DNA of 64,000 nucleotides from Opitutales bacterium (GTDB taxonomy: Bacteria; Verrucomicrobiota; Verrucomicrobiia; Opitutales; UBA2987), in contig JAJFLV010000025.1 of the NCBI GenBank assembly GCA_021772535.1, positions 5,400-69,399 of the forward strand, read 5' to 3'. How positions within the stretch are numbered: the stretch's first letter is position 1; every line of letters starts with the position of its first letter. Below are positions 19,835 through 42,882 of the stretch, piece by piece. Under the pieces are notes generated by a model. It saw only the letters and a program-made list of their open reading frames with translations, was not told where the DNA came from and made no database searches. The translations under genes and the position numbers were made by a program.

Positions 19835-19923
19835 GCAATTATAGCTAGTTAAATATCACATATTCTTTTTGATTTGGGCTATTTCATAGTCATTTGTTAA
19901 TCTTTACATTAAACTATCCCAAA

Positions 19924-20959: not shown

Positions 20960-20965
20960 ATATAA

Positions 20966-23418: not shown

Positions 23419-23786
23419 TCTAAATCCTCCTTAACTGGCTTCGCATAAAGTATGGCCTCTTCTTCTGGTGTAAGTTCTGTTTGTTCAATTTCTTTGATTT
23501 TTTTAGTAGAAACCAGCTGAACAGGTTGACCATTTTCACTCCAGGATTTTGTAACAATAATAAAATCTCCACCCGTTGCCCATTTACAAATCTGTTTAAT
23601 CGTACCATAAGCTAGGTTTGATAACTTAGCAAGTTGGTATTTAGAAATAGGTTGTTTTGCTCTAATTAAGTTTAGAACAAGATTATTCCTTTCAACTACG
23701 CCATTATAATCCTTTTCTTGTAACTTTTTAACTAGGGTTTTAACGTCATGTTCGCTAAAAAAGGTATTAGGAGTCATACTGGGCAA
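23415..23786 (-). CDS. Winged-helix DNA-binding protein
   Basis: PISKYQLAKLSNLAYGTIKQI HTH; ATG start possibly at 23777. Confidence 0.7.
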   Translation of the reverse strand: MPSMTPNTFFSEHDVKTLVKKLQEKDYNGVVERNNLVLNLIRAKQPISKYQLAKLSNLAYGTIKQICKWATGGDFIIVTKSWSENGQPVQLVSTKKIKEIEQTELTPEEEAILYAKPVKEDLE

Positions 23787-23928
23787 AACCTCCCTTGAGA
23801 AATAGAATTATAGCTCTTTCGTAAAAAGCGACATATTTTTAAAGTTCTGTGATTTGTTCCCATTGTAAATTAAGAAGGGGTGATTGTCCTGTGAAATTTC
23901 AATCACCTCTTTGCTATGAAATTGAAGA

Positions 23929-24150
23929 TTATTTCTTGAGCTTCTTTATTCTCCCATCCATTGTATTTTTTGATTCGATGTTATCATGTTCCTCTAGCCA
24001 GATTACTAATAGGTTTTCAATCAGAGGTGAAACTTTTCCACCGAAGTAATTAATTTTATATCTAACTTTATCTATAATACTTCTACGAATTGAGATTGTA
24101 ACATTTACTTTTTTTTCCTCATTAGTCTTTTCTTTAACTTGCTTAGACAT
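23929..24150 (-). CDS. RHH/CopG-like regulator
   Basis: KVNVTISIRRSIID...VSPLIENLL; CAAAGCTTATAAG box upstream. Confidence 0.65.
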   Translation of the reverse strand: MSKQVKEKTNEEKKVNVTISIRRSIIDKVRYKINYFGGKVSPLIENLLVIWLEEHDNIESKNTMDGRIKKLKK

Positions 24151-24384
24151 ACATGATTCTATGTAAGATTACTTATAAGCTTTGTGGGTACAAAGATTTT
24201 TATCGACGATAAGAACTCTAAAATACCTCAATGTCATTTTAGAATAGTTCGGTTAAATAGACATAAATTTAAAATCTTCTTACATTAGTCTTTAACATGA
24301 ATTGGGGTTATATGGCTCTTCTTGCGCTGGCAATTGTAATATCAATTATTTCGATAGTTGTTATAAATTTATTTATCTAATTTA

Positions 24385-25533
24385 TTACTTGGTCCTAACA
24401 TACATTTTTTTATTCTTCTCAAAAACTTTAACTGTTGGAAACTTTTTCTTAAAACGTTTCTCCATTGCTATTGTTTTATCATTGATTCTTTCTTCAAACT
24501 TATCCATAAGATCTTTCATATCTCTTATTTTAGACTTTAAGTTTCCCACCTCAAGTTCTAATTTATGTTTTGTCTTTGGGTTGATCTCTTTAATCTTATA
24601 TACATTCTCCAATAAACTCTTAGCAACATCTTCTGAATTTATATGAGAGTAAATTGCAGTCATTCTACTATCTTTACTGTGTCCTGCAAATTTCTTATGT
24701 ATTTGCTCAGGCAATATTTTATACAACTCATTTAATCTACTATGTCGTAAAAGGTAAGGATATATTGGTCTGCTTAGTTTTGATTTCTTTGACAACCTTC
24801 TTAGAACCATAGACAAATAACTTTTATCTATGGATTTCTTTCTATCTCGAATTGTAGGAAATACATAATCGCTATTTCTTATGTTCTTAAAGGCCCATTC
24901 TTGTTTCCATCTTTTTAAGTGTACAACACTATCTTTAACCAAGATAGTTCTCGCGCTATCTTTCTTCTTAGAATATAAATGTACCTTGCATAATCCATCA
25001 TCAGTAAATTTCAAATCTTCCCACTTTAATTCCCTTATTTCTTGTGGTCTTGCTCCACTTTCATATAACAACGTAATAAGGGCTTTATCTCTTAACCTTT
25101 CTGCTGTTCTGAGCAAAAGCTCAAGTTCTTCTTCTGTTACTAAATTATTTTCATTAACCTTCTTTTCATTTAATCCATTTTGATTTTTTACATCAATAAA
25201 TTCATCAAACCTTATACTCCAATCTCTAAAGTTCCACCTCAAGAATTTCTTTATATGAATTTTAATTCCGTTCTTTGTCCATTTCTCTCTATCTGAATTA
25301 TTTAATAAACTTAGGTAATTTCTTAAATCTTCTAAATTTATGTCATCAAAATTCTTTTTGACAAGAAGCCTAAATTGTACAACATTTCTTCTTATATCTT
25401 CTAATTTCTTTTCTTTTGCATTTATAGAACAATAATCTATGAACTTATCCAATTTATTTTTTTCTAGAATATCAAGGTTTCTATATGCTTTTTTCAACTC
25501 CCCCCTTCCGTACTTAGGATAAACTCCTTTCAT
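24385..25533 (-). CDS. Tyrosine integrase IntA (archaeal-type, C-terminal coiled coil)
   Basis: SGARPQE, SKK, YLLRHSR, AGH, IYSH; adjacent to site C. Confidence 0.9.
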   Translation of the reverse strand: MKGVYPKYGRGELKKAYRNLDILEKNKLDKFIDYCSINAKEKKLEDIRRNVVQFRLLVKKNFDDINLEDLRNYLSLLNNSDREKWTKNGIKIHIKKFLRWNFRDWSIRFDEFIDVKNQNGLNEKKVNENNLVTEEELELLLRTAERLRDKALITLLYESGARPQEIRELKWEDLKFTDDGLCKVHLYSKKKDSARTILVKDSVVHLKRWKQEWAFKNIRNSDYVFPTIRDRKKSIDKSYLSMVLRRLSKKSKLSRPIYPYLLRHSRLNELYKILPEQIHKKFAGHSKDSRMTAIYSHINSEDVAKSLLENVYKIKEINPKTKHKLELEVGNLKSKIRDMKDLMDKFEERINDKTIAMEKRFKKKFPTVKVFEKNKKMYVRTK

Positions 25534-25559
25534 AAAAGAGAATAATAAAGGAAGTTTAT

Positions 25560-25630
25560 AAACCCTCGTTTGTTAACACTTACTTACCCCCTCTTCAAGG
25601 GTTTGACTTTTTGTAAGCGTTTACGGGTTT
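25560..25630 (+). repeat. Putative recombination site C (full dyad) between divergent integrases
   Basis: AAACCCTCGTTTGTTAACACTTACT-5nt-CCTCTTCAAGGGTTTG...TTGTAAGCGTTTACGGGTTT; same arm spacing as site B. Confidence 0.8.
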
Positions 25631-25681
25631 TGTGAAGGAAATGTGTATTAACTTTAAAAAACTCGTTTCGACTTAACAAAG

Positions 25682-26866
25682 ATGAAAGATCACTATCCCG
25701 AATATCGAAAAGAGAATATTACCACTGAGTATATTTATTCACATTTAGTTAAGGCTGAACAAGAAATAGTGGACAAATTTTTGACTTATTGTTCAATTAC
25801 CGCAGGAAAGGGAAAACTTAAAGACATCAAAACCAATATTCTTCAGTTTCGGGATATAGTTGAGAAACATTTTGAAAAAAATACGTTAAATGATGTCAGA
25901 GCCTATCTCGCAATTCTTAACCAATCGGGGCGAGCGAAATGGACAAAGAACGGAATTAAAATCCATGTGAAGAAATTTCTGAAATGGAAATTCAAAGATT
26001 GGTATGAAAGATTTAACGAACTAGCAGATATAAAGCTATCCAAAAATCCCAGAAACGAAGAGCGGATAAATGACAGCACTCTCGTAACAAAAGAGGAGTT
26101 ATCGAAACTGCTTCGCATAGAGGATACAATAAGGGGCAAGGCCCTCTTGTTCACATTATATGAAACAGCGGCTAGACCGCAAGAAGTCAGGCTCTTACGG
26201 TGGTCGGGAGTCGAATACCTGGAAGATAAAATTACAAAAATTTCTCTATATTCAAGGAAAACGGGGCATTCGAGAGCGGTCTTCGTTAAGGACGCAACCA
26301 TTCATCTTAAGAGATGGGAGCAAGAATATATCAATTCTGAAAGAAAATTAACAGACTATGTATTTCCGTCCAAGAAGGCTTCCCATGAACCAATGGGAAA
26401 GAGTGCTTTAGAGGTTTGGTTGCGGAGATTATCGCACAAAGCAAAGCTAGGCAGAACCATATATCCTTATTTGCTTCGCCACACCCGGTTAACTGAAATT
26501 TGGGATAAACTTGGTGATGTCATCGTCCACAGGAAATTTGCCGGACATAGCCAGGACAGCTCAATGACTTCACTTTACGTCCATCTCAGCGACAAGAATG
26601 TAAAAGATTCTATTTTAAGGAAAGTTTATCAAGTTGATGAATCACATCCAAGCAAAACACAGGAATTGGAAAACGAAAACAAGCATTTGCGGGCGGAAGT
26701 TAAGAACATGCGGTCAATCAAGGAAGAGTGGCATTTACTAAAACGGCACTTCCCAATGATCCAAGAGGTTTTTGCAAAAGCAAAATCTGTTGAACAGCTA
26801 GAGGCCGCTTATCGGAATAAAAGTGAAGAGGAGTTGGTTTTGCAAAATACAAGGGCTGCTCAGTAA
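25682..26866 (+). CDS. Tyrosine integrase IntB, paralogue of IntA
   Basis: Shares KWTKNGIKIH.KKFL.W, RPQE, YPYLLRH.RL and KFAGHS with IntA; visibly higher GC. Confidence 0.9.
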   Translation: MKDHYPEYRKENITTEYIYSHLVKAEQEIVDKFLTYCSITAGKGKLKDIKTNILQFRDIVEKHFEKNTLNDVRAYLAILNQSGRAKWTKNGIKIHVKKFLKWKFKDWYERFNELADIKLSKNPRNEERINDSTLVTKEELSKLLRIEDTIRGKALLFTLYETAARPQEVRLLRWSGVEYLEDKITKISLYSRKTGHSRAVFVKDATIHLKRWEQEYINSERKLTDYVFPSKKASHEPMGKSALEVWLRRLSHKAKLGRTIYPYLLRHTRLTEIWDKLGDVIVHRKFAGHSQDSSMTSLYVHLSDKNVKDSILRKVYQVDESHPSKTQELENENKHLRAEVKNMRSIKEEWHLLKRHFPMIQEVFAKAKSVEQLEAAYRNKSEEELVLQNTRAAQ

Positions 26867-27036
26867 CATCGATATAGTGAAAATTAAAACCGCCCTTCTT
26901 AAAGCAAAAGTGTCCTGAGACTTCAGTTGTTCGTTGTTATTACTCCCGGTATTTTACAAATAGAACTGGGGTATTAAAAATATCCCGCAATTAAATGAAG
27001 TCTCGAATCAGTTATAAAAAAGTTCAATCGTAATTT

Positions 27037-29113: not shown

Positions 29114-31186
29114 ATGTTCCGGCCTTCCTGTGACATCAGAACAGTTCACGCCGACCAAAATCAATTAGCGGAGCAAATAGCACGTAACCTGGATTCTGGA
29201 GGTTATGTCGTATCTTCAACGATTGAGGCGGAAAGCCATGGAAGAGTCACCATCACATCAAAAAACGAAATCCGTTCGCCATGGAAGCTTTTTAAGGAAA
29301 ACCTACCCCAGATTGTTCATTTCCGACTTGAGCAGAAGGAACACAACGAAATTGTTATTGAAACGGAGTTTGAGTCTCATGCTTGGTATGTGTTCTTTCT
29401 TGCCTGCTTGAATATTGCCTTCACTTGCCTGGGAGTAGCGCTTTATTTATTCCTGGCCTTGCGGGTTGGCGGTGTAGATCACCGTGTTCATGTCATTTCT
29501 ATTGTTCTCCTCATAGGCGGTTTGGCTTTCGCGGGCTGGATGCGTTTTGTGTTTCTTGCCCTCAATGCTCAGGGCAATGTCATATTTATCGAAGCGTTCT
29601 ATAAAAATATTCAAAACACTTTAGGCGTGAATGCACGGGTTATTCAGCGGCCTCATCTTTGCCCTCATTGTTCCAAATTTATCTCTTTTACATTCGTTTG
29701 TTTTCTGCTGGCAACTTCTTTGTTATTTGATTCAAATCTCTCATCAAAAGTAACGTTCTTTTTATTATTCGGCTTTATCTTATCGCTATGCTGTATTCAG
29801 GCGGCAAATATATTTGGGCGGGGAACAACCGTGGTCACGGTGCTCCATTCCACGGTATTTTTTGGCGTATATGGCGCGGTTCTATTTGCCGCCCTAAAAC
29901 CGCTGAAGCTGGCCGCATCAATTTTTGAGTCGCAAATCAGGCGCGGCGTTTCGCCTGACCTGAACCTGTCCCCTTACCTTCTGGAAGTAGCTGTTTTACT
30001 GGGTTGTATCATCTTTCCCACAGCATTCCTACTCAGTCTCTTCAGCTTCATCAAAAAAATCATTCCAGAGTTAGACCTGAGACGATCAAGGGAAATTCAG
30101 CCTATCGAACCCGAACCGGTGGAAAAATACTGTTCGTATTTTGTGGTCGGAGCGCTGTGGATTTTTTCCATCGGAGTGCACGCAGCGATTCTCTATATTT
30201 CGCTTTCGCTGCTTGAGCCCCTCCTATTTGGAAAGAATGTGATATTCCAAAACGCTTTTTTAACCGAATTTCACGAAACATTTGTTGTTTTGACCCAACA
30301 CTGGCATCCGAACTCTTTTGTAGAAAAAGCAGGCGTAGTATTGTCCAACCCGGCAGCGGAACGTTTTGCAGAAAGCATATGGAAAGTTTTTGTGTTCGTT
30401 TATACATTGCCCGTACTGTTTCTGTTCGGCGCATTGGTCGTTAAAAATCTCTCCAATTTACTTCACTATTTCCGATTGCTTCGGTCAAATTCTGGGCCGG
30501 AAAACACAGGGGATCAGTTTAATAGGATTCAGGAAATTGCACGAAACATCTCGGCCTATACAGGTATTAAGCCCCCTGCAGTTAGGATCGTCAACAGTGA
30601 AGCGATCAACGCCTATGTCGTCATTCCCAAGCTGCCTTTATTGAAGGAAATACTTGTCCTGACGGAAGGCGCTGTCACAAAACTGCCATCAAATGAAATC
30701 GCCGCCTTAATCGCTCACGAAATCGGACATATCCGGGCGCGGCATGTGGCCTATTTCTCGTTACTGGATTTTCTATCGGCATGGACTTTTCTGGGAGAAG
30801 GCTACGTTACTGTTCTATTTGCCAACCCGTTTCATCTGGAGGAGGAAGCGGATACTTTTGCTGTTCGCTATTTGGATGAAGAGCGGTTGCTTGGGAGACA
30901 AGCTTTGATTCAGCTTCTAACCTTGATTGAGAAGGAAAAGATTAAGGCGTACTGGCAAGCTTCTGAATTACAGGGTTTGTCTGTGAGCCGGAATGATCAC
31001 ATGGACTGGCTGCCGTCCACTCTGAGATATGGATTGAGCCATTATCCAGGTTTTGGACCAACAAAAAAACTATCGTTCAATTTCCGGCTGTTTTATTTTC
31101 TCTGTTACAATGGTTGGTTGGCGTATTACACACACCTGCCGTTTGACGAACGTGTGATGAAAATTAAAAGTATGGAAACGCCATGA
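29114..31186 (+). CDS. M48 (HtpX-like) membrane zinc metallopeptidase with extended multi-TM N-terminus
   Basis: INAYV, ALIAHEIGH, EEEAD, THLP...ER. Confidence 0.85.
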   Translation: MFRPSCDIRTVHADQNQLAEQIARNLDSGGYVVSSTIEAESHGRVTITSKNEIRSPWKLFKENLPQIVHFRLEQKEHNEIVIETEFESHAWYVFFLACLNIAFTCLGVALYLFLALRVGGVDHRVHVISIVLLIGGLAFAGWMRFVFLALNAQGNVIFIEAFYKNIQNTLGVNARVIQRPHLCPHCSKFISFTFVCFLLATSLLFDSNLSSKVTFFLLFGFILSLCCIQAANIFGRGTTVVTVLHSTVFFGVYGAVLFAALKPLKLAASIFESQIRRGVSPDLNLSPYLLEVAVLLGCIIFPTAFLLSLFSFIKKIIPELDLRRSREIQPIEPEPVEKYCSYFVVGALWIFSIGVHAAILYISLSLLEPLLFGKNVIFQNAFLTEFHETFVVLTQHWHPNSFVEKAGVVLSNPAAERFAESIWKVFVFVYTLPVLFLFGALVVKNLSNLLHYFRLLRSNSGPENTGDQFNRIQEIARNISAYTGIKPPAVRIVNSEAINAYVVIPKLPLLKEILVLTEGAVTKLPSNEIAALIAHEIGHIRARHVAYFSLLDFLSAWTFLGEGYVTVLFANPFHLEEEADTFAVRYLDEERLLGRQALIQLLTLIEKEKIKAYWQASELQGLSVSRNDHMDWLPSTLRYGLSHYPGFGPTKKLSFNFRLFYFLCYNGWLAYYTHLPFDERVMKIKSMETP

Positions 31187-32085
31187 GCAAATCAAAAATC
31201 AGTCCGCTGGAAGCGAAGAACCTATCCAAAAAAATCTTTCTCGAAATTCATCCGGAAAAGGATCTCTGGTTCGATCTGGCATGGGAGGCATTCGAGGAAC
31301 GCGGGTTCGATTTGCCCGTAAAGGGTAAAGCGCATGTGCTACCCGCATTGGCAATGTCTTCGGATTCGGACACGGCGGTCAAGGAATTGATCGATCATTT
31401 TGCGGTATTTTTCGAAGCTTTTATGGTATCCTTTCCTGTGGCTAGGGAGGAACTCTTAAAAAGAATCCAACAGGTAAGCCAGGAGCATGGTGAGGGCCTT
31501 ATCGCGACTCAAGGACTGGTAGAAAAACTTAATTGCCACCTGCCACTGGATGACGGGTCAGAAGCGCAGCGGATTGATCTCAAGAAAGCAGCCCCGTCTG
31601 AAAAACAGGTTTTCGTCGAAAGGCTCCTCAAAGGGGAATATACTGGACCCCGAAGCCGTTCACTGAGGTATGCAAAAAGCGTTCCATCGAGGGCGAGTTA
31701 CGACCTCGTTATCGATGAAAGGAATTCCACCCTGTATATCAGGCCGTCTGGCGACGATTTGGTCAAAAGGGATATATTCAAACTGCCTGGAATGCAGCGC
31801 GGTATGCTTTGGCTGGTTCTTTCTCATGTCTCCATTGGCTACTTGACTCATGAAGATATCGGAACAACTTTTGGATATGAATTGGGGAATAGGTTTGACC
31901 CGCAAAAAATTTATCAATGCCGCATTCAGTTGGGCAAGCTTTTGGGAGATGCTCTGAGGAATAAAGTTTTGTCCGAAGGGGTCACGAAAACCTACAGGAT
32001 AAGCAAGGAAAACTGGTCCTTTTGTTGGATCAGGGAACATTTGGATTCCGGCTCAAGCCTGCTCTTGCGAGGCGTTGGGCGGTAA
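31183..32085 (+). CDS. Hypothetical protein with C-terminal winged-helix-like domain, coupled to the M48 gene
   Basis: ATGA overlap; LTHEDIG...IYQCRIQLGKLLG resembles an OmpR-type wHTH. Confidence 0.6.
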   Translation: MSKSKISPLEAKNLSKKIFLEIHPEKDLWFDLAWEAFEERGFDLPVKGKAHVLPALAMSSDSDTAVKELIDHFAVFFEAFMVSFPVAREELLKRIQQVSQEHGEGLIATQGLVEKLNCHLPLDDGSEAQRIDLKKAAPSEKQVFVERLLKGEYTGPRSRSLRYAKSVPSRASYDLVIDERNSTLYIRPSGDDLVKRDIFKLPGMQRGMLWLVLSHVSIGYLTHEDIGTTFGYELGNRFDPQKIYQCRIQLGKLLGDALRNKVLSEGVTKTYRISKENWSFCWIREHLDSGSSLLLRGVGR

Positions 32086-32665: not shown

Positions 32666-33445
32666 TCAAAGCATATCAAACTCAGTCTGTTCAGGTCGCG
32701 GACTTGGCTTCGATTCATAATTTGAATGGGTTTCTGATTCATCTACTTCTGGAATTGTTTGGAAGATATAGCCACCTTTCCTTATCGAAATTATCAAGCG
32801 CCTTTCGTTGAGCAGCGTATTGCCGTGTATTAAGTCGGCATTTAAGTCAAAGAGCCATGCGTTAATGGCCGCCATCTTAACACACCTATCGTCAATATCC
32901 TGGCCGACATAAAAAGCATCTGGATGATATTTCGACATATTTATTAAAAGCCTTCCAGAACCACAGCAGGGATCGTTGATAGTAGTTCTCTCCATTGTTC
33001 GGCCACTAATCATTCTTGCCATCACTTCAGAAACATTACTAGGAGTCATAAACTGTCCATGTTCTCCGTAGGAAATGCCTGATTGATAAATTTCCCCAAG
33101 TATGTCTCTTTCCTTTTCCCGTGTTTCTCTCGACAACACACTCCAGGCTTCGGTAAAATAATCAATTGGTCGTTCACCCCTTCTCCTTGTCTGATTTTCC
33201 CTATATCGTTGAATAATTTGCAAGTATTGATCTTCATATTTTCCTTCTAATCGGTTTTCGCGTAATCTTTGAATAAGATCGGGTCGATTTATATTTTCTG
33301 TTAAGGAGCAGAGAGAATTCAAAATCAAATCCAGCCAATCAGGAAAAATTGTATTAGCTGAATAGCCAAAGCTCCTAATCTTCATTAATTCATTCCAAAC
33401 TTCCTTTCCATCATCTCCAATATAGTCACGATTTCTCCGAGCCAA
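32666..33445 (-). CDS. N-6 DNA methylase-like SAM-binding protein (HsdM-like, short)
   Basis: GQFMTP, DPCCGSG, GQDID, GNTL; GAGGTGA SD before a TTG start. Confidence 0.8.
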   Translation of the reverse strand: MARRNRDYIGDDGKEVWNELMKIRSFGYSANTIFPDWLDLILNSLCSLTENINRPDLIQRLRENRLEGKYEDQYLQIIQRYRENQTRRRGERPIDYFTEAWSVLSRETREKERDILGEIYQSGISYGEHGQFMTPSNVSEVMARMISGRTMERTTINDPCCGSGRLLINMSKYHPDAFYVGQDIDDRCVKMAAINAWLFDLNADLIHGNTLLNERRLIISIRKGGYIFQTIPEVDESETHSNYESKPSPRPEQTEFDML

Positions 33446-33479
33446 ATTTTAAATCACCTCATCATTTTCAAACACAAAT

Positions 33480-33728
33480 TTATTTATAGATTCTTCCTCT
33501 CTTGTCAAAAACCCTTACGAATAAAATCTTTTTCTTTTTATCAACGTCTATCAATGCCCTATAATCCCCAATTCTTAATTTATAACCAATGCCTTCATAA
33601 TGAACTAAATATCTAAATGGTAATTCTTTTATTTGATCGAATTTGTTTAAAATCCTTTTAGATACTTTTTTTTGTAGTTTTCGCAGGAGCATGAATGCAT
33701 TTTTACTCCATTCTATCGAGTAACTCAT
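33480..33728 (-). CDS. relE: RelE/ParE family toxin, paralogue of 13001
   Basis: YSIEW...YKLRIGDYRAL...VFDKRGRIYK. Confidence 0.9.
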   Translation of the reverse strand: MSYSIEWSKNAFMLLRKLQKKVSKRILNKFDQIKELPFRYLVHYEGIGYKLRIGDYRALIDVDKKKKILFVRVFDKRGRIYK

Positions 33729-33913
33729 TTTTCGATAATCAACTTCTTAACTTCTTCATGAGATATATTATCAGTTCTTTTTCTTGCTTCTGCTAACTCT
33801 TGTTCCGCCCAATCTGTTAATTCTTCCTCTTGAATGATTGCCTTTTTTATAAGTTCTATGTCCTTTCTCAAACTGAGCATATCTTGATGAATGGTTTTTA
33901 GATTGATTTCCAT
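33725..33913 (-). CDS. Cognate antitoxin, paralogue of 13249
   Basis: ELTDWAEQELAEARKR; ATGA overlap. Confidence 0.8.
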   Translation of the reverse strand: MEINLKTIHQDMLSLRKDIELIKKAIIQEEELTDWAEQELAEARKRTDNISHEEVKKLIIEK

Positions 33914-34009
33914 TCCCTGCTAAAGAATTTTATGTTTAAAAATCTATCGACATCGATCAATAGTGAATCCTTTCTTGTATTTTCTCATCAGCAAACTTTA
34001 TTCCTGATT

Positions 34010-34294
34010 TCATTTTCTCCAACTTAGACGTGGCTTAGATAAATATCTTTTTACCAGTTCTGGATTCCAAATCCAGACAATCCACCCCTCTTTGTCCCGT
34101 GCTATTTTTCCCGATTCTAACAGATAGTCAAAAACAACGCAAAAAGTCTGGTAAATCATTTTTTTAGGCAGAGCTTCCCAAAGAGATTTTTTCTTATATT
34201 CTCCAGAGTTGTCTCTAATAAAATTCTCTACTCTTAAAATAGTATCTAATTGTGGATAGTGCAGGATATTCTTTCTTAACATTACTTGTGGCAT
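34010..34294 (-). CDS. Small winged-helix-like protein of DPANN type
   Basis: YPQLDTI...LWEALPKKM.YQT...DYLLESGKI...VWIWNP; CGAAAGATTTTTAAG promoter about 21 bp upstream. Confidence 0.7.
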   Translation of the reverse strand: MPQVMLRKNILHYPQLDTILRVENFIRDNSGEYKKKSLWEALPKKMIYQTFCVVFDYLLESGKIARDKEGWIVWIWNPELVKRYLSKPRLSWRK

Positions 34295-34829
34295 GGTTAT
34301 ACATATTTGTATAACTTAAAAATCTTTCGGTAAATCGAGCCCAAACCAATAGCTGACAATTTCTCCAGTAAACTAGGTTTTTGGCAAAAACACGCACTAT
34401 CTACTCATCGGTGACTCGCGCGGAGCGTATAAGTCGCGAAATCGTGCTTTGATATACCCGTCAATAACACCCAATGGTGACAAGCGTCACTAAATTTTCA
34501 ATGGGTGAATCGGGAGTATTGTTCGTCGTGAATCCCTGGTATAGGGAGTTAAGGCGTATCTGAAAATAAGCCAAATGGAATTGTAATTGGTTCATGGCCA
34601 GCCACTTTCGCCTATTTATCCCTCCTGTGAAATCGGGAAGGAATTATAAGTAATATTTAAGCAAGCTTTAGGGGTTGAGTGAATGGCTGGCAACCCGCTG
34701 TTGTGATAATCTTAGGCTAAATAATTCAGAGCGTTAAGATGATACATTTATCAAATAAAACTATTTCTTAAAAGTATTCAGACAGCGAAGAAAACATTAA
34801 GGCCATACCCAGGATGGAAAGCATAATTT

Positions 34830-35249
34830 ATGGATATACTAACAAAATTAGCCCATGACTATTGGAATTGGGTTGGAAATTTTCACCCGATTTTTCAAAT
34901 GTTCCTTCTCAGGTGGGCGTGTCTGCTGCTCTCCCTTCTATTTTTTGGGACGATTGTTCGCACCATTTCCATAAAATTAGTGAGTAGGACGCTGGCCCTA
35001 CAGGTTTTGGCTGTAGCATTGGGTATTATCGTTGGATTTTCAATTTCAGTGGAGAAAGCCCTTAATCTCAAATCAAACGACTTAAATCTTCTCCTGACGA
35101 TTTCAATCCTTACCTGGCTTATCGTTCCTTATTTTCTTCCTCAAGTCCTTATACGAAGGAGAGGATTTCAGAGAATCACATGGCCGGTTATTTACCTGAC
35201 AGAATTCGTTCTTCTGGTTGTGCAATTCGTCGCTTTGAAAGGCAATTAA
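34830..35249 (+). CDS. Membrane protein (about 4 TM)
   Basis: Hydrophobic helices; first gene of the operon. Confidence 0.7.
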   Translation: MDILTKLAHDYWNWVGNFHPIFQMFLLRWACLLLSLLFFGTIVRTISIKLVSRTLALQVLAVALGIIVGFSISVEKALNLKSNDLNLLLTISILTWLIVPYFLPQVLIRRRGFQRITWPVIYLTEFVLLVVQFVALKGN

Positions 35250-35251
35250 CG

Positions 35252-35797
35252 ATGCTAACCATAATAAAATCAAAATTGTCCCGATTCTTTTCGGATGGAA
35301 TTGATACCTGGACCGGAAAAAATTCGCCTACTGTAAAGGCGGACCGATCCGTATCGAAAACTCCAGATGCAATAAATCCGCAAACACTTCCCGCACAACC
35401 AACAGTCCAGAGAATGAGGAACGATCTCATCCAGAGCGAGGTCGTCGAAGAAATCCTGAGTAAAAAATCCGAGCGGGTCCATATAGTCAAAAGTGGTTCG
35501 GAAATTATTGGCTCTGAAGAAAAAAGGAGTTTTACGGATGAAGGGCTGATCACGGACTCAGACCAATATTTTCTCCAAACCTCGGAAGGAAGATTTATCA
35601 AGGGGAAAGAACTGCACGGCGGAGGCGAATGCTATGCGTGTCAGCGATATTCCGATCGCGTGAATTTTTGTGATGTATGCCGGAAGCTAGTCTGCGTCCT
35701 TCATTCTGTGCCCCACCAAAATTTGACCGTATGTCCATCTTGTTGGCGAAAATTGAAGTTCAACGAGGATTCTTGGGAAGAAATTCAAGGGAAATAA
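35252..35797 (+). CDS. Binuclear Zn-finger protein (probable start 35252)
   Basis: CYAC...CDVCRKLVCVLH...CPSC provides eight candidate ligands. Confidence 0.7.
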   Translation: MLTIIKSKLSRFFSDGIDTWTGKNSPTVKADRSVSKTPDAINPQTLPAQPTVQRMRNDLIQSEVVEEILSKKSERVHIVKSGSEIIGSEEKRSFTDEGLITDSDQYFLQTSEGRFIKGKELHGGGECYACQRYSDRVNFCDVCRKLVCVLHSVPHQNLTVCPSCWRKLKFNEDSWEEIQGK

Positions 35798-35803
35798 TTC
35801 ATA

Positions 35804-37957
35804 GTGAAAAATCAGCAACAGTTTGACGATAGAAGTCCCGCCTTAAAGCGGTATGACCTTATTCAGTATCTAGCAAAGCAAGCCGGAATGAGGCAAGACC
35901 GGCGGGTGCTTAAAGCTCTGCGTTTGATTAAATTGAACCCCACAGACAGAAAGGCCATACGTGAAGTTTCAGGGCAAATTATCAATCTGATCAAAAGCAC
36001 TCCTGAACACTTGATCCAACAGCAAGACCTAAATCCATTTCAACCCTATCCCGGACGTATTGTATCCGGTCCGATAAGGATAGGAAAGGCTTACAACCCG
36101 CGAAACCGCTTCCCGGTCATCTTCGGACTCCACCCCTACGAGTTGAATCAAAACATTTTGCTGGCCGGGCGAGCCGGGGCGGGGAAAACGGTTCTTCTTC
36201 TAATCATCCTCTCGGAGCTAATGAGATTGGGGATGCCAGCCATGGTTTTTGATTTCAAGAGAGACTATAGACATTTAATCCGAAGATATCCTTCCATCCA
36301 GGTCTTCAACTGGAAAAACCTCAAATTCAATCCCTTCGCTCCCCCACCTAATACCGATTTTATCTATTGGGTTCAGGTGATCGTAGATATTTTCTTTGAA
36401 GTCTTCTTTGATACGACACCGATAGCCGCCAAAAGCATTTTCTTAGATTTTCTGGTTCGGAAATATCAAGAATTCGAGAAGCTTTATGGAAAGGGAGTTT
36501 ACCCAACTCTTTTTGATATTGATGAATCGATCAGCGAAACCCTAGCGAACAAAAGCGTTTCGAAGAATTACAAAGAGCGACTTTGCACAGCGCACAGCAG
36601 AATCCGGCCGCTTCTTGTTATTTTAGGAGAAATGTTTGATTGCCAGGAAGGATACCCGATTGAAGACCTCTTGGAAAAAACCGTCGTGCTCGAACTCGAT
36701 GGTCTACTGGAAGAACCCCAAAACTTTTTAGTCAACACCCTCTTTCATTGGATTTTCACCTATCGTCTTCAAAATAATCAGCGGGGGAAATTGGTTCACG
36801 CACTGTTCTTCGATGAAGCCAAGAAGATTGTGGCCAAATCCAAAGCTTCCGGCTCCTCAACAATTTCAAGGCTTCTTTCAATGGCTCGTGAAATGGGCCA
36901 GGCGGTTATTGCCGCTGATCAAATGCCTTCCAGTTTGGGCGATGCGATCCTCGCCAATGTTTACACCACCATCGTCCTGAATCTTTCTGCGGGCAAGGAC
37001 ATACACGCTATGGGCTATGCAATGGGCCTTAATGCAGAGCAAAGAGCCTATCTCAGTCGCTTTCCTGTCGGTCGAGGTGTTGTAAAATTGGCTGGCAGAC
37101 ACACCCAACCGTTCCTCATCGAGATTCCAAATTTCGAAATCAAAAAAGATGTCAGCGATGCAGAATTGGAAGCTTTAATGGAGTCAAATTTTTCCGAATT
37201 GAAATTTAAGCCAAGAGTTTCACGTCGGACTGACGCCGATGCTTATACAACAACCCAGCCCAAAGAGGAATCTCCACAACAGTTTGAGAAATCGCCAGTC
37301 CAAAAATCAAAGGATGATGAGATTGGGAAAACACCTGCGCTCCCATTCGATCTATCGGAGAAAGAATTCTCCTTTTTGATGGATGTGAAAAATCGTCCAT
37401 TCCTTTCCATCGGGAAAAGATATGAATCTCTAGGATTATCAGGTTACATGGGCAACAGGATTTGCCACACCCTCCTGGAGAAAGAACTGGTTAGGGATAT
37501 AGAAATCAGGATTGGGGGGCGAGGAAGGTCGCGAAAGTATTTGGAGTTTAAAGAAAAGGCTCAAGGGGAAATAGGTCGGCAAAATTTTGGTCCGGGAAAA
37601 GGCGGCTTTGAGCACGTCTTTCATCAACAACGTCTTCGTGATGATTTCATTCAGAAGGGTTTTCAGGCAGGGATAGAAACTTACCGGAACGGTAAGGCAG
37701 TGGATTTGGAAATTACCAAAGAGGGAATTTCCATTGCCATTGAGCTGGCCATGACTCCGGGAGGAGAGGTCAGCAATTTCCAAAAGAATTATCAAGCCGG
37801 TTGGACTCGGATTTGGTCCGTCTGCAAAGACCAGAAGATCATGGAACAAGTGCAGAGGGAATGGGAGGGCCAGAGGGCCAATTACCCTGCTGATCTTGTG
37901 GAATTTTTTCTCATTTCAGACCCGCGATTTTATTCTGACGGAAAAATTAACAATTAA
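35804..37957 (+). CDS. HerA/VirB4/TraD-superfamily (DUF87-like) ATPase with C-terminal wHTH and nuclease-like domain
   Basis: GRAGAGKT, FDFKRDY, KFNP, FFDEA, AREMG, ADQMPS, ILAN; C-terminal H..Q...VDL...IAIEL. Confidence 0.85.
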   Translation: MKNQQQFDDRSPALKRYDLIQYLAKQAGMRQDRRVLKALRLIKLNPTDRKAIREVSGQIINLIKSTPEHLIQQQDLNPFQPYPGRIVSGPIRIGKAYNPRNRFPVIFGLHPYELNQNILLAGRAGAGKTVLLLIILSELMRLGMPAMVFDFKRDYRHLIRRYPSIQVFNWKNLKFNPFAPPPNTDFIYWVQVIVDIFFEVFFDTTPIAAKSIFLDFLVRKYQEFEKLYGKGVYPTLFDIDESISETLANKSVSKNYKERLCTAHSRIRPLLVILGEMFDCQEGYPIEDLLEKTVVLELDGLLEEPQNFLVNTLFHWIFTYRLQNNQRGKLVHALFFDEAKKIVAKSKASGSSTISRLLSMAREMGQAVIAADQMPSSLGDAILANVYTTIVLNLSAGKDIHAMGYAMGLNAEQRAYLSRFPVGRGVVKLAGRHTQPFLIEIPNFEIKKDVSDAELEALMESNFSELKFKPRVSRRTDADAYTTTQPKEESPQQFEKSPVQKSKDDEIGKTPALPFDLSEKEFSFLMDVKNRPFLSIGKRYESLGLSGYMGNRICHTLLEKELVRDIEIRIGGRGRSRKYLEFKEKAQGEIGRQNFGPGKGGFEHVFHQQRLRDDFIQKGFQAGIETYRNGKAVDLEITKEGISIAIELAMTPGGEVSNFQKNYQAGWTRIWSVCKDQKIMEQVQREWEGQRANYPADLVEFFLISDPRFYSDGKINN

Positions 37958-38097
37958 AGCAAGTTTAAAGAAAAATCTTATTTGTAACCAATTACTTTCA
38001 AACAACTTATGAATTATTCAAGGAAACATGAAATGATTTTATTCTGATTCCCCAATTTATTCTACCACTTTCCCTCTCTAACAAGGCCCAGAAAAAA

Positions 38098-38832
38098 ATG
38101 AAAACACAGAAATTAAATCAAGAGAAGCCTGCAGGCACAGACAAACTCATTCAAAGAACAGACAAAGCAGTCGAGCAGTTCAATGTCTCCTTCGGTGAAT
38201 GCCTGGCGATTGCTGTCACCTGGTTGCAGAAATTGTCCATTCATTTGGAAAACCAAGACCAGCACCAACTGGATTTGGACAAACAGCTTCTCCGAATTGG
38301 AAAGCAATTGGATAATCAGGACACAGAACTTGATGGTCTTCGTAAACAACAAACCCGGCTGACCTCAATTATGCTTGGTCTAAGCAAAGAGAGTGATGCC
38401 CAAGGCCACAATATCGAGCAAATCAGGCTACTCAACGATGGTTTGGTGCGAAAAGTTGAGGATCTGTCCCAGGAATTCATCCAAGAGCATGTTGAAGCCC
38501 CATTGTATAAAGAATTCGCAAAAATTTACGGCTCACTCCTGGCCCTCGAACCTCTAATGAGGGCAAGCGGACAGGATGATCTTACTGCTCTGGCCAATAG
38601 CATAGAGAGATTCCTCGATACGGAGGGTATTAAAATCATTCGTCCCAAGCCCGGAGACCAATTCGAGCCAAGGCAACATCAGCCAATCAAGAAAAGTGAT
38701 ACGGACCAAAGCTCAATGAGCGGCCGTATCGCAAAGACCTATCTTCCCGGATTAGGCCAGAACGAGAGAATTATCCAGCACGCGAGAGTGGCAGTTTTCA
38801 CATTCAAAGAAAAATCTCAAACCCAAGAATAG
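38098..38832 (+). CDS. GrpE-like nucleotide exchange factor with long coiled coil
   Basis: C-terminal GDQFEPRQHQ...IAKTYLPG...RIIQHARVAV. Confidence 0.8.
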   Translation: MKTQKLNQEKPAGTDKLIQRTDKAVEQFNVSFGECLAIAVTWLQKLSIHLENQDQHQLDLDKQLLRIGKQLDNQDTELDGLRKQQTRLTSIMLGLSKESDAQGHNIEQIRLLNDGLVRKVEDLSQEFIQEHVEAPLYKEFAKIYGSLLALEPLMRASGQDDLTALANSIERFLDTEGIKIIRPKPGDQFEPRQHQPIKKSDTDQSSMSGRIAKTYLPGLGQNERIIQHARVAVFTFKEKSQTQE

Positions 38833-38843
38833 GAGGAATATAA

Positions 38844-40379
38844 ATGAATAGTTCAATCAGCAACAAACAATTCGTGGGCATAGACCTTGGCACGAGCAAT
38901 ACCGGCGTCGCTTTTTTCGACGAGACAGGCAAACCAAAGATCATACCCAATATCGATGGTGAGATGCTTACTCCATCCGTTGTCTATGTTGGTCCTGGAT
39001 GCAGGGAAATTCTTGTCGGCACTGCCGCAAAAAACATGGAAATGCTTGAGCCGGACAGAGTCTTTAAGGAGTTCAAACGCGAGGTGGGAACGGACAAAAT
39101 CTACGCCTTGGAAGAGGGAAAGGAAATAACGCCCGAATTCTTACAAACACAGTTGTTAATATACATTCACAATTCGGTAATAAAATATTTTGGCGATTCC
39201 ACCACTGGAAATATCAAGGTTGTTGTAACCTGTCCCGCGCAATTCAAAGAACATCAGCGCCAATCCATAAAAAAATCAGCGAAACAGGCCGGATTCGATA
39301 TTCTCGCCATTATCAACGAGCCCACTTCGGCTGGATTGGCCTATGGAGTAAATGAAAAGCAGGGCGACAGGCTTGTCATGGTTTCGGATTTTGGCGGGGG
39401 AACTTACGATTCTTCACTGATTTCTTATGCCGGGGGAGAAGCGACTGTCCTCGCCTCCAACGGTGACAAGCAACTCGGAGGAAAGGACGTTGACGACATT
39501 CTTCTCGATTTGGTTCAGAAAGCATTCCAGAACGAGCATAACTTGATAATCTCTGCCCAATCTCATCCTGCCGATTGGTTCAATATTCGCGAGGAGGTCA
39601 TCAGGCAAAAACACATGCTTTCTTCCAGGACCGAAGTGAAGCTGGTGGCAAGGATTGAAGGGAAGCAGGTCGTCATTCCTGTCAATCGAGAAATGCTAAA
39701 CATGATCGTTAAGCAACTCATGGATAGGATCGAGAACATCACTCTCGAAACAATCAATAAGGCAAAGGTCGATAAGAAAGAAATAAAGCACGTTCTAACA
39801 ATTGGAGGTTCGAGCCGCTTGATTTCCTTCCAGGAGTCAATCAAGAAAATGTTTGGAGAAAACTGTATTCTTGCGGGAAGCGTCTCACCGGATATGGCCG
39901 TTGCAGAAGGGGCCGTTATCCATGCGGCCAAACTTATTAGCTCAAAAGGAAAGACCATTGTCGATGAAGGATTGCGGGCCATTCCCGCCCCTTCAATATC
40001 CCATGTCGATTGCATGCCTCACAGCCTTGGAGTGGCCGTGTTCGGTGCCATCAACTCGGGATCTCACAAGCTCTATTGCTCTGCTATCCTTGAAAGTAAT
40101 ACGCCCATTCCCTGTCAGGCAACAAAGGCGTATTCTTCCGTTGAAGATGCTCAAACTGAATTTCATGTTCAGGTTTTGCAGGGGGAAGAGGATCAAAAAT
40201 TCGAAGATTGTTTGGTCGTCGGAGATCGCAGATTGAATTTTCCGGCCCGTCCTTCTGACAAAGACAGCATCGAGGTAGTTATGGCATACGACAATTCGGG
40301 CATGGTCAACGTCAGCGTGAAAGACCTCATTTCTGGAAACACCGAAGACATTACCATTGATTTCTATTCCAATAATTAA
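38844..40379 (+). CDS. Hsp70/DnaK-family paralogue lacking the helical lid
   Basis: GIDLGTSN, TPSVV, TCPAQF, INEPTSAGLAYG, DFGGGTYD, LGGKDVD, IGGSSR, VLQGE; ends after SBD-beta; AGGAGG SD. Confidence 0.92.
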   Translation: MNSSISNKQFVGIDLGTSNTGVAFFDETGKPKIIPNIDGEMLTPSVVYVGPGCREILVGTAAKNMEMLEPDRVFKEFKREVGTDKIYALEEGKEITPEFLQTQLLIYIHNSVIKYFGDSTTGNIKVVVTCPAQFKEHQRQSIKKSAKQAGFDILAIINEPTSAGLAYGVNEKQGDRLVMVSDFGGGTYDSSLISYAGGEATVLASNGDKQLGGKDVDDILLDLVQKAFQNEHNLIISAQSHPADWFNIREEVIRQKHMLSSRTEVKLVARIEGKQVVIPVNREMLNMIVKQLMDRIENITLETINKAKVDKKEIKHVLTIGGSSRLISFQESIKKMFGENCILAGSVSPDMAVAEGAVIHAAKLISSKGKTIVDEGLRAIPAPSISHVDCMPHSLGVAVFGAINSGSHKLYCSAILESNTPIPCQATKAYSSVEDAQTEFHVQVLQGEEDQKFEDCLVVGDRRLNFPARPSDKDSIEVVMAYDNSGMVNVSVKDLISGNTEDITIDFYSNN

Positions 40380-40400
40380 AAACAGAAAGGAAAGACAACT

Positions 40401-41084
40401 ATGAAAGGGTTAGCTACAATATTTAGAGAAATGATAAGTCCAACTGAGGACACTTTGAATGCAAGAGATTCAAAAAACACGGCCATAATCGCGTCTCACA
40501 ATCAAGATCAAATTTCGTCCGTAACTATACTTACATTCGATGTGAGCGGAAGTATGTCAGGAATGGATTATAAACCGACAAGGCTTAAGGGAGCTATCAA
40601 GGCTGCCCAGCATTTCCTTATACGTCTCTCAGAAGTCGAGCCTGAAAACAGGGTGGGAATCGTCAAATTTGGAAGCATGGCAAAGGTTGTATCTCATCCA
40701 TTGCCTATAGGCATTTCTATTGGTGAACTCCAAGCTAAAATCGATAATCTCTCAACGGGATGTCTAACTAATATTGGGTACGGCCTTACCTTGGCTGGAA
40801 GAGAAATCTCTCGGATTCCTTATCAACAAAATTCAAGAATTCTTCTTCTAACAGATGGATCAAGTAATGCCGGTCCCAATCCTGTAAGAGTTTCTCAGGA
40901 ATTAAAGGCAAGGGGTATTCAACTGGATATTATCGGAATTGGCGGCTCACCAAAAGATGTCAATGAGCCTGACCTCAAGAAAATGGCCTCAGTTGTGAAT
41001 GGAGAGTTGAGATATTGGTTTATCAAAACAGTTCCAGAGTTAGTAAAAAAATTTGAATCTTTGGCCTTGAGGGAGATTAAATAA
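40401..41084 (+). CDS. Stand-alone von Willebrand factor A domain protein
   Basis: MIDAS DVSGSM, T(NIG), LLTDG. Confidence 0.9.
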   Translation: MKGLATIFREMISPTEDTLNARDSKNTAIIASHNQDQISSVTILTFDVSGSMSGMDYKPTRLKGAIKAAQHFLIRLSEVEPENRVGIVKFGSMAKVVSHPLPIGISIGELQAKIDNLSTGCLTNIGYGLTLAGREISRIPYQQNSRILLLTDGSSNAGPNPVRVSQELKARGIQLDIIGIGGSPKDVNEPDLKKMASVVNGELRYWFIKTVPELVKKFESLALREIK

Positions 41085-41116: not shown

Positions 41117-41491
41117 TTGAATAAAATGGAACGGGACGTAACAGAACAGAGAGATTTTGAAGTCATCACAGGCGATTCAAAAGGGTTGCCTAGCTGTATT
41201 TCTATCTCACTTTCAGTTCAATTATTTTTACTCAATCAAAATCTCCATAAGCTTCTTGACCATCTTCCTTTTTTATCGGCGAAACCATTAATCGTGAACG
41301 GTAAAATGTTTTGCCTGGCCGATAAGCAAGATCTATCAAAAATCTTAGGAGTTTCAACGGCTACGATTCAAAGATGGTCTAAAGATGGAGTCATCCCGAA
41401 ACCCTTCAGCCCTGAACGATCTAAAAAAGGAAGAAAGATTTTGAAATGGGATATTTATGAAGTCTTAGATTGGATACAAAAATACCGCTAG
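41117..41491 (+). CDS. Excisionase/AlpA-like HTH protein
   Basis: DLSKILGVSTATIQRWSKDGVIPKP...WDIYEVLDWI; convergent with the integrase. Confidence 0.75.
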   Translation: MNKMERDVTEQRDFEVITGDSKGLPSCISISLSVQLFLLNQNLHKLLDHLPFLSAKPLIVNGKMFCLADKQDLSKILGVSTATIQRWSKDGVIPKPFSPERSKKGRKILKWDIYEVLDWIQKYR

Positions 41492-41589: not shown

Positions 41590-42774
41590 CTAGGAAAGAC
41601 CGAAATCCCCGGGGCTAATTCCGAAAAACTCTTCCACCCTTTTGTTATCTGTAATCAAAACCTTGTAGTGCCGTCGAATCATGCTCAGTGATGTAGCACA
41701 TTGATAGCAGACCTCCCCTATTGGTTCTATTTTACTCAAATTACTGATAAACGTGTGACGCATGATGTCATTCTCTTTCGCTTTTTTATCAAGTAAAATC
41801 TCCTGCTTTACGGCACGAAATTTTCTCTTTAAATTTGTCGGAAGCATCGGAAAATCTTTTGGATGAGACGCAAAGAATTTTATCCAGGCCATTAAATTGT
41901 CCTGAATCTTGATCTCACGGGTTCTTTTTCCTGTTTTTTCAATTTCCTCAGAGACGATGATTTTCCGATCCACCAAATCCACAAACTTCCATCCATATTC
42001 TGAGTTCTTCCAAAATTGTTTCATTTCCGCCTCTGGTCGCATCCCTGTAAAAAACCCCCAGACAAACCATGGGGCACAATTCTTCTCAATGGCTTTCTTA
42101 ATGAGATTTTTTACCTCTGGAACCGTGCATATTTCCGGTCGACTCCTTTTTTGTTTGGGACGTTCAATATGGCTTAAAGGATTTATGGAAATTGGAGGAT
42201 TTTCGAGCTTCGAAATGTCTTTGGCTTCATTCGCTAGCCATCCAAAAAAATGATTGAGGACCTTATAGCGGTGAAAGACATGGTTGTTTACTGCAAGATA
42301 TCGGTCTAATTCCTTCCACTCGATTTCAGATGGTTTCCGAGATCCGAACACTTCTTTGAAAGCATTGAGGTAATACAATATTTCCTGAATTGTTTTAACG
42401 CTTCTACGCTTCTTTTTGCGATTGATAAAATCTTCCACATATTCGTCTAAATAAAGTTCATGGCGCGTATCGCGGTAATGTTTGATGAACCAATCTACAA
42501 TTGTCAGGAGGTCTTTTCCTTGAGCATCAGGATTGGATGTGCGTCGCAATTTAAGAAGGGCGGCTTCAGCAACTTGTATTTCATCAGCTTTTAATCCACC
42601 ACCATGATACTCTCGAATAAGACGCATCCTATCTTGCTTAGCGGTTTCTTCGGTAGAATGTTTTCGCCGGTATCGTCCACCATCGGGCAGCGTGCAGGAT
42701 AACAGCCAAAACGGATTACCCGTCGAATAATCATATTTTTTGATTTTGGGATTGAGGGGCTTCATTTCTCCCAA
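41590..42774 (-). CDS. Bacterial phage-type tyrosine integrase of the island
   Basis: FTGMRPE, K, IMRHTFIS, HY; N-terminal arm-binding-like region; abuts the tRNA att. Confidence 0.9.
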   Translation of the reverse strand: MGEMKPLNPKIKKYDYSTGNPFWLLSCTLPDGGRYRRKHSTEETAKQDRMRLIREYHGGGLKADEIQVAEAALLKLRRTSNPDAQGKDLLTIVDWFIKHYRDTRHELYLDEYVEDFINRKKKRRSVKTIQEILYYLNAFKEVFGSRKPSEIEWKELDRYLAVNNHVFHRYKVLNHFFGWLANEAKDISKLENPPISINPLSHIERPKQKRSRPEICTVPEVKNLIKKAIEKNCAPWFVWGFFTGMRPEAEMKQFWKNSEYGWKFVDLVDRKIIVSEEIEKTGKRTREIKIQDNLMAWIKFFASHPKDFPMLPTNLKRKFRAVKQEILLDKKAKENDIMRHTFISNLSKIEPIGEVCYQCATSLSMIRRHYKVLITDNKRVEEFFGISPGDFGLS

Positions 42775-42834: not shown

Positions 42835-42882
42835 TGCATGGGGTGCAAGGGGTCGCAGGTTCGAATCCTGTCAGCCCGACCA
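42835..42882 (+). tRNA. 3' fragment of tRNA-Pro(GGG) = island att site (5' half absent, non-functional copy)
   Basis: TGCATGGGGTGCAAGGGGTCGCAGGTTCGAATCCTGTCAGCCCGACCA has anticodon loop GGG, T-arm and CCA; no D-arm or 5' acceptor strand upstream. Confidence 0.85.

Follow-up and report, generated by a model that had tools for sequence, protein, structure and literature searches.

A HerA-type ATPase and a lid-less Hsp70 cassette at the end of an integrative element in an Opitutales bacterium

Why would a mobile element carry its own Hsp70, and what would such a chaperone work on? The question is raised by a stretch of 64,000 nucleotides from an Opitutales bacterium (assembly GCA_021772535.1, contig JAJFLV010000025.1, positions 5,400 to 69,399; this whole stretch is what we call the window). 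Six genes of the same orientation, all on the plus strand, run there up to an excisionase-like gene and an integrase-like open reading frame (ORF), which itself lies on the opposite strand (Table 1). They encode a transmembrane (TM) protein, a zinc finger (ZnF) protein, a HerA-like ATPase, a GrpE, an Hsp70 and a von Willebrand factor A (vWA) protein. A sequence-only reading of the same DNA had described this arrangement correctly and proposed one dedicated six-gene machine. Our results lead to a different picture. The six genes are two modules, TM-ZnF-ATPase and GrpE-Hsp70-vWA, and not a single fixed operon: elsewhere the first module is followed by ubiquitin-type or kinase-phosphatase cassettes, or by none that we could see. 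It is this exchange behind related ATPases that made us reject a fixed six-gene machine. We tentatively read the operon as a defence module borne by the element, a motor-nuclease whose regulator can be exchanged; we hold this reading with a little under even confidence.

From TM to vWA the gaps between the genes are 2, 6, 140, 11 and 21 nt, and the excisionase gene lies 41 nt beyond. GC content is 44% in the module and 49% in the host flank.

Table 1. Features of the window that bear on the operon and its element (positions refer to the window; aa, amino acids; NBD, nucleotide-binding domain; SBD, substrate-binding domain; MIDAS, metal ion-dependent adhesion site; HTH, helix-turn-helix)
Feature	Position	Strand	Remarks
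4-helix membrane protein (TM), 139 aa	34830..35249	+	opens the TM-ZnF-ATPase block; four hydrophobic segments
Binuclear zinc finger (ZnF), 181 aa	35252..35797	+	eight Cys/His ligands, nearly invariant terminal Trp
HerA/FtsK-type ATPase, 717 aa	35804..37957	+	ATPase domain, linker, winged helix, PD-(D/E)XK fold (predicted)
MarR-like winged helix and restriction-endonuclease-like domain, C-terminal in the ATPase	37334..37954	+	predicted structure
GrpE-like nucleotide exchange factor, private to the module, 244 aa	38098..38832	+	Pfam GrpE 7e-9
Lid-less Hsp70, 511 aa	38844..40379	+	NBD and SBD-beta, Pfam HSP70 2e-88
Stand-alone vWA, 227 aa	40401..41084	+	Pfam VWA_2 3e-16, MIDAS intact
Excisionase-like HTH	41126..41491	+	Pfam HTH_17 6e-6
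Tyrosine integrase-like ORF	41590..42774	-	phmmer 1e-15 to L007 ORF, 9e-15 to L210 ORF
att site	42835..42882	+	48-bp exact copy of the tRNA-Pro(GGG) 3' end, identical to G000:C5:19245-19292
Multi-TM M48 peptidase and 300-aa regulator-like ORF	29114..32085	+	Pfam Peptidase_M48 3e-11; candidate regulators

The slot behind the ATPase

Flanking genes were read at nearly all places where a related ATPase was found (one place in G952:C1 was left out). The six-gene order recurs in two loci. In L007, from the same genus, all six genes stand in identical order; its module proteins are those of the same-genus genome G051 and were counted once. In L209, from another class, the order is TM, ZnF, an ATPase with winged helix, a separate nuclease-like ORF, GrpE, Hsp70 and vWA; one more ORF runs into the contig end. 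The Hsp70 of L209 is 30% identical to that of the window. A third locus, L210, has a split ATPase and a nuclease-like ORF ahead of GrpE, Hsp70 and vWA, which are followed by membrane ORFs, xis and int. It looks like a deletion chimera, because the N-terminal half of its ATPase (L210:6975-9241) groups with the backbone clade described below; the C-terminal half is differently related, and the whole is probably a backbone ATPase joined to an Hsp70 cassette. Including the window, GrpE-Hsp70-vWA thus occupies the slot in four loci of four genomes. GrpE holds the equivalent position in L007, L209 and L210, and it follows directly after the ATPase or its nuclease-like ORF in all four loci with readable DNA. 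Homologues of the TM protein, which has no family in Pfam, PADLOC or NCBIfam, occupy the equivalent position in L007, L192 and L209.

Two other gene sets fill the same slot. Two small ORFs followed by JAB and ThiF genes (the latter two identified by Pfam or phmmer) are found in three loci of two genomes (L192, L263 and L264), with TM and ZnF recognised in all three. A vWA-PP2C-kinase triad is found in six loci of six genomes (L214, L215, L257, L259, L261 and L268). One genome, G952, has both the Hsp70 and the kinase versions, and another, G469, both the JAB-ThiF and the kinase versions. A fourth arrangement is seen in L193 (1710-9104), where a ZnF-like ORF and the ATPase are preceded by a JAB-ThiF fusion, a gene for a Clp-like AAA ATPase and three small ORFs that are paralogues of one another.

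In a tree of 35 ATPase domains (IQ-TREE; L258, a TrwB-like outlier, was excluded), the window and L007 group with the ubiquitin-type locus L192 (support 100), whose ATPase domain is 47% identical to that of the window, and L209 groups with L263, L264, L267 and L268 (support 99); L267 stops at a contig edge. Hsp70 and ubiquitin-type cassettes each sit on two ATPase branches, which fits repeated exchange; parallel loss would be an alternative. A separate backbone clade of ATPases (support 100) usually has a small upstream partner and no cassette.

The module is rare and its distribution patchy. ATPase searches matched 7 of 201, 9 of 401, 2 of 151 and 15 of 251 genomes in the sets searched, and a vWA profile found 2 of 251 genomes in another class and, in the class to which G409 belongs, none of 251. 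With a cut-off of E<=1e-150, the Hsp70 profile retrieved its own genome alone among 301. Family-level searches around G907 (1/1) and G952 (1/28) gave nothing further. Plasmid searches returned distant matches only (at most 37% identity). Neither a motif pattern nor queries with Hsp70, ATPase and vWA brought up a member of the family among viral contigs, one scan giving ordinary DnaK-like genes; a metagenome scan with a generic Hsp70 motif gave mostly ordinary DnaK.

The ATPase and the chaperone cassette

The earlier reading was right to call the ATPase HerA-like, but it overlooked how the protein ends. Pfam matches DUF87/HerA at 5e-5. An AlphaFold2 (AF2) model built from 58 sequences has a mean pLDDT of 89 with one low-confidence linker (residues 477-509), and its best Foldseek matches are HerA, DndH, VirB4 and TrwB. 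Walker A (GKT) and Walker B (DE) are present in all 58 aligned rows. The C-terminal 207 residues were also folded separately from eight sequences (pLDDT 90). In the predicted structure a winged helix resembles MarR (Z 11.2, root mean square deviation (rmsd) 2.0, 75 residues aligned) and is followed by a nuclease-like domain that resembles AF1548 (1y88; Z 10.4, rmsd 3.0, 103 aligned) and NucS/EndoMS (2vld; Z 9.3, rmsd 3.5, 96 aligned). All 58 rows share the putative nuclease residues H604, E625 and D634, and 57 have E647; what stands at the K position of PD-(D/E)XK varies. The models thus predict a PD-(D/E)XK restriction-endonuclease fold with conserved acidic residues, which makes the C-terminus a putative nuclease.

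The ZnF family comprises 150 clusters (50% identity) at E<=1e-3 and 48 at E<=1e-10, all of at most 295 aa. Among the 150, C127 is conserved in 149, C140 in 146, C148 in 147, C161 in 142 and W175 in 147. A weak, sub-threshold Pfam match to TerY_C (0.002) and an ESM Atlas match to Prok-RING_2 (score 0.84) may serve as leads only. The ATPases of L214 and L259 carry a fused N-terminal region that contains Cys, and in some loci two hydrophobic segments are fused along with it.

For the Hsp70, the claims made from sequence held up well: NBD motifs and SBD-beta are kept, the lid is gone and the linker is a variant one. We delimited the family as 76 proteins of at least 39% identity, below which there is a drop to about 34%, and aligned 66 of them (nine partial proteins and one with an odd tail were left out). 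Equivalents of the catalytic residues K70 and E171 of host DnaK are present in 66 of 66 rows and of T199 in 65; the phosphate-1 and adenosine motifs are present, and the equivalent of the allosteric R151 is kept in 65 of 66 rows. The alignment with host DnaK stops at residue 504 of 651, and past the last SBD strand the 66 members have a tail of 15-44 aa where DnaK has 164 aa, which means that they have no lid. In the linker, where host DnaK has a hydrophobic LLL, the residues are polar. At the column of R167, the residue by which DnaK contacts the J-domain, only 3 of 66 family rows have Arg, as opposed to 38 of 44 more distant Hsp70s.

These are not the features of a housekeeping chaperone. 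The Hsp70 scores far below the NCBIfam cut-offs for DnaK (276 vs 823) and HscA (249 vs 709) and lacks the C-terminal helical lid, and we rejected that reading, in agreement with the earlier view of the cluster as mobile and non-housekeeping. A tree built from selected rows, namely 15 of the family, 12 distant matches, the loci and DnaKs, places the family on a long separate branch (support 1.00). The host encodes its own DnaK, DnaJ and GrpE. The missing J-domain partner in the window was also real: a profile built from 39 DnaJ domains, which recovers host DnaJ, found no J-domain in 816 ORFs, a set that covered the window and the remainder of the element, three related loci and three test proteins. 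Directly after the vWA gene, L209 (1-319) and L210 (2737-3390) have homologous ORFs (E 5e-11) that are not present in the window or L007. Their start looks J-domain-like by eye, with no HPD; the J profile gives E 4.6 and PDB searches were blank.

The long extra coiled coil suggested for GrpE is plausible, since the protein has 244 aa compared with 193 in host GrpE and only the C-terminal 70 aa match Pfam, although the extension is modest. The vWA family has 71 matches, of which 62 were aligned, and the MIDAS residues D47, S49, S51, T123 and D152 are invariant in all 62 rows. The likeness to Rpn10, Ssl1 and Bat proteins that had been noted is real, but unspecific, because BatB, Rpn10 and p44/Ssl1 score similarly among the best PDB profile matches, and all of them below a mussel-thread vWA.

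Hsp70 and vWA are tightly linked. Linkage was gauged by coinciding sizes of source contigs, with the expectation taken from jittered sizes. Among 88 Hsp70 and 78 vWA contigs there are 22 coincidences (two of them the window's own and that of L007), whereas 0.57 are expected and the maximum under jitter is 5. Complex prediction for Hsp70 and vWA gave 0.29 against a mark of 0.32. The two domains also occur fused: L010 (355-7497) encodes, in tandem, a short Hsp70, an Hsp70-vWA fusion and a protein of 1137 aa, and P0083 and P0115 are further fusions. The tail of P0010 scored 369 for an out-of-frame vWA against a shuffled maximum of 356, in a test that is too permissive.

Named systems and competing explanations

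The operon matches no named system, as had been suspected, and is apparently undescribed. Five of the six proteins had no PADLOC match, and the ATPase had only partial ones to mad8, HerA and DndH. We found no paper on this block or its cassette exchange in a literature search that left subscription journals largely uncovered, and supplements of the Aravind and Koonin groups may list such loci. The module resembles conflict systems that combine an NTPase with swappable regulators, yet it belongs to none of the named families.

The closest precedent is the GAP1-N2 DO-GTPase systems, in which similar themes are swapped. These have a membrane-linked, zinc-ribbon NTPase core and non-overlapping themes that include HSP70 with GrpE and kinase with PP2C and vWA, and a role in conflict has been predicted for them (Kaur, Burroughs, Iyer, Aravind 2020; PMC7159879). 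The window shares the HSP70-GrpE theme. It differs in its core: the sole P-loop protein of the six is an ATPase of HerA type that carries a winged helix and a nuclease fold, and there is no TRAFAC GTPase. We also found no GTPase or DnaJ fusion, JAB-E1 is a third theme here, and the Hsp70 keeps SBD-beta and loses the lid alone. Pfam, used without a dedicated GAP1 profile, gave no GAP1 or FNIII match among the six proteins.

The alternative cassettes recall systems that are reported to be anti-phage in their own right. TerY-P-like vWA-PP2C-kinase triads are such a stand-alone defence (PMC11090510), and six sibling loci carry vWA, PP2C and a Ser/Thr kinase behind a related ATPase. The window has the vWA only, one nearer BatB/Rpn10, and GrpE and Hsp70 replace phosphatase and kinase. 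Stand-alone defence is also reported for the Bil ubiquitination operons (PMC11601596). L192, L263 and L264 follow the Bil order of small ORF, HxxC ORF, JAB and ThiF (compare also the Bub operons; PMC1779556). Their E1, however, consists of just one ThiF domain (about 270 aa), unlike the tandem-domain BilD, and is coupled to a HerA-nuclease, and the window module itself has no genes for a ubiquitin-like protein (Ubl), E2, JAB or E1.

The HerA anti-phage systems Sir2-HerA and DUF4297-HerA also join a HerA fold to a nuclease-type effector, but here the nuclease fold is fused C-terminally behind a winged helix and none of the six genes encodes a Sir2 or DUF4297 partner; the ATPase scores 15 bits against NF042943, whose cut-off is 800. 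The best PADLOC match of the ATPase is mad8 (8e-17, residues 114-449) of MADS, whose mad1-mad8 operon includes a kinase, HsdS and a methyltransferase. Among the ten proteins scanned, however, the generic mad2 match is a methyltransferase on the other strand, the weak mad1 match is the excisionase, and mad3 to mad7 gave none. Type III-A CoCoNuT extensions combine vWA genes, FtsK/HerA-superfamily ATPases and Hsp70-like domains (PMC11090510). The six genes and the flanking ORFs scanned include no McrB GTPase, McrC homologue, helicase or HEPN, and the Hsp70 here is a separate protein with intact catalytic residues and its own GrpE. DnaK-DnaJ-GrpE and HscA/HscC have the NBD motifs, SBD-beta and the GrpE partner in common with our cassette, which differs in its lid-less Hsp70, polar linker, mostly lost R167 equivalent, vWA partner, mobility and rarity.

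How could such an operon work? On our preferred reading, the TM protein and the ZnF adaptor would anchor a hexameric HerA-type ring ATPase at the membrane, as is suggested by the fusions of Cys-containing region and hydrophobic segments to the ATPase in some loci. The ring would translocate DNA, either incoming or induced, into its own predicted PD-(D/E)XK domain, which would cut it. The vWA might take a target through its MIDAS and hand it over to the open SBD-beta of the Hsp70, and GrpE would reset the Hsp70 nucleotide, with no canonical J-protein involved. This chaperone cycle could keep the motor inactive as long as no invader is sensed, or it could assemble the motor. In other elements the same control step would be taken by phosphorylation (vWA-PP2C-kinase) or by ubiquitin-like conjugation. 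Anchoring, cutting, hand-over and the defence role itself are proposals that we infer from the nuclease fold, the anti-phage-like alternative cassettes, the GAP1-N2 precedent and the presence of a separate backbone ATPase in the same element, which could serve the biology of the element. A stronger version, in which one membrane-tethered translocase-nuclease accepts three functionally equivalent, eukaryote-style plug-ins (a J-independent lid-less Hsp70 with an Rpn10-like vWA, a ubiquitin-like system and a kinase-phosphatase), is conceivable, but we consider it rather unlikely.

Several of our results weigh against this reading. Backbone-clade ATPases without cassette (L176 and L204 to L206) share the winged helix and nuclease fold, so this architecture is not specific to defence. 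The best NCBIfam matches of the ATPase, far below threshold, are to transfer proteins: CedD (39 vs a cut-off of 600), VirB4 (41.5 vs 643) and TraC (32 vs 1177). At the loci with the kinase triad, TM and ZnF were recognised by profile in one of six (L268), and there about 3.5 kb of other genes separate ATPase and triad. Four loci (L252, L253, L255 and L256) have a divergent ZnF-like ORF and ATPase with no cassette seen. The two small ORFs of the ubiquitin-type slot have no match in Pfam, NCBIfam, PADLOC or PDB; they are candidates for Ubl and E2 by motif and position, the first ending in a conserved VG plus 1-4 residues and the second having an HxxC motif (both in three of three loci). Finally, of 39 Hsp70 contigs of at least 8 kb, 18 match a vWA contig and one matches the ATPase list (72 matches), which counts against a fixed six-gene unit. 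The blank on the ATPase side is weak, because that list misses contigs carrying relatives of at most about 30% identity in G118, G797, G469 and G907.

The contig matches and the loci without cassette could also be read to mean that TM-ZnF-ATPase belongs to the element and that the position next to xis and int gathers independent cassettes. GrpE-Hsp70-vWA would then be a stand-alone, probably defensive set that would bind invader proteins and remodel them without touching the ATPase. The 140-nt gap ahead of grpE, the widest in the operon, would fit, as would the distant Hsp70-vWA fusions, in whose fetched flanks no ATPase of this family was seen, and the reports of TerY-P-like triads and Bil as defences on their own. 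We nevertheless regard this as unlikely, if well worth keeping in mind: GrpE lies directly behind the ATPase or nuclease-like ORF wherever the DNA could be read, three protein-acting cassette types fill one slot with mostly short gaps, and the pairing is retained across classes at about 30% identity.

One could also argue that the operon serves DNA transfer or maintenance of the element, with TM, ZnF and ATPase forming a translocase of the Ced or coupling-protein type that includes a nicking domain and is assembled or recycled by the chaperones. Foldseek places VirB4 and TrwB just after HerA, NCBIfam adds a weak CedB match to those for VirB4, CedD and TraC, the relatives L204 and L205 lie near Replic_Relax genes, and the operon abuts xis and int. 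Yet every score for the Ced, VirB4 and TrwB transfer families is below 10% of its cut-off, queries with Replic_Relax, DUF3150 and DUF1257 were empty in the own genome (G000; the element's ORFs were only partly scanned with Pfam), the same elements hold a separate backbone ATPase, and it is left unexplained why a kinase-phosphatase or JAB-E1 should stand in for a chaperone. We therefore consider transfer improbable, and the evidence leans towards defence over it. It is very improbable that the element carries along a second DnaK-like system as an accessory chaperone for stress. The intact ATPase motifs and SBD-beta and the GrpE partner would allow it. However, lid, hydrophobic linker and R167 equivalent are lost, the element has no J-protein, the family is a long separate branch tied to vWA, and the host already has DnaK, DnaJ and GrpE genes.

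If the defence motor-nuclease with an interchangeable regulator is real, then chaperone cycling, ubiquitin-like tagging and phosphorylation are naturally swapped regulators of one nuclease motor. It would also give a handle on what non-solitary TerY-P triads and orphan bacterial JAB-E1 operons regulate. The Hsp70 family, with more than 60 clusters that keep ATPase residues and SBD-beta and have lost the lid and the usual J-docking Arg, offers a natural test of an Hsp70 with a vWA partner.

The integrative element and its surroundings

The operon closes an element of about 61 kb that is integrated at tRNA-Pro. Its att site has a counterpart on another contig of this genome, C5, inside a tRNA-Pro(GGG) that is intact. 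The end of C5 and the start of C158 share 141 bp at 100% identity, which gives an element of about 60.8 kb. This join is likely but not unique, because the overlap sits in a repeat that recurs at window 33975-34350. Pfam found no family for the integrase ORF at E<=0.05; we call it integrase-like because it resembles the integrase-like ORFs of L007 and L210 and adjoins the att site. Related modules adjoin integrase genes at other sites, such as tRNA-Cys in L192 and, in L007, a tRNA fragment read by eye as part of tRNA-Leu. An empty att site was not found, and three same-genus loci have no tRNA or att closer than about 1.5 kb to the downstream gene; nor was an excision joint seen in the contigs examined. 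An 8,611-nt contig, possibly from the source run and not independent support, spans the module at a depth of 11.3 compared with 12.3 in the flank.

The same element encodes a second HerA-family ATPase paralogue (490 aa, C158:2436-3908) of the backbone clade. It lies in L006 (G000:C158:569-4218), together with its small upstream partner, a single-stranded DNA-binding protein (SSB) gene and winged-helix genes. L176, L194 and L210 represent widespread integrative elements with DUF3150, DUF1257, AAA ATPase, RadC-like and methyltransferase genes; the element of L210 carries the first four. A literature search on DUF3150 and DUF1257 found nothing on such elements.

The M48 peptidase and 300-aa regulator-like pair, or a single member of it, lies upstream of the block in L007, L194/L214, L215 and L259 as well. 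M48 peptidase and 300-aa protein, a candidate sensor-regulator pair, also recur in L266, upstream of the block or near a related ATPase. Beside the ubiquitin-type element, L192 (5294-11653) has phage-tail-like genes between rpsO/pnp-like genes and tRNA-Cys.

Within the element, window 10400-27000 has low GC (32%), an nSTAND3-like ATPase, many orphan ORFs and four tyrosine-recombinase genes (15161-16081, 19924-20511, 24385-25533 and 25682-26866). It has the look of a nested small element, or of more than one, and may have an archaeal flavour. A block with an N6 methyltransferase and a ParE-type toxin-antitoxin is duplicated in the element (window 32666-34350 and G000:C5:30590-31926, 88-96% identical). 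An Rfam search was blank. Further cargo at window 6195-10382 comprises a large secreted TSP3-repeat/GH115_C protein and its neighbours. In the host flank, at 53936-57111, direct repeats spaced 378-408 nt apart probably belong to a repeat protein.

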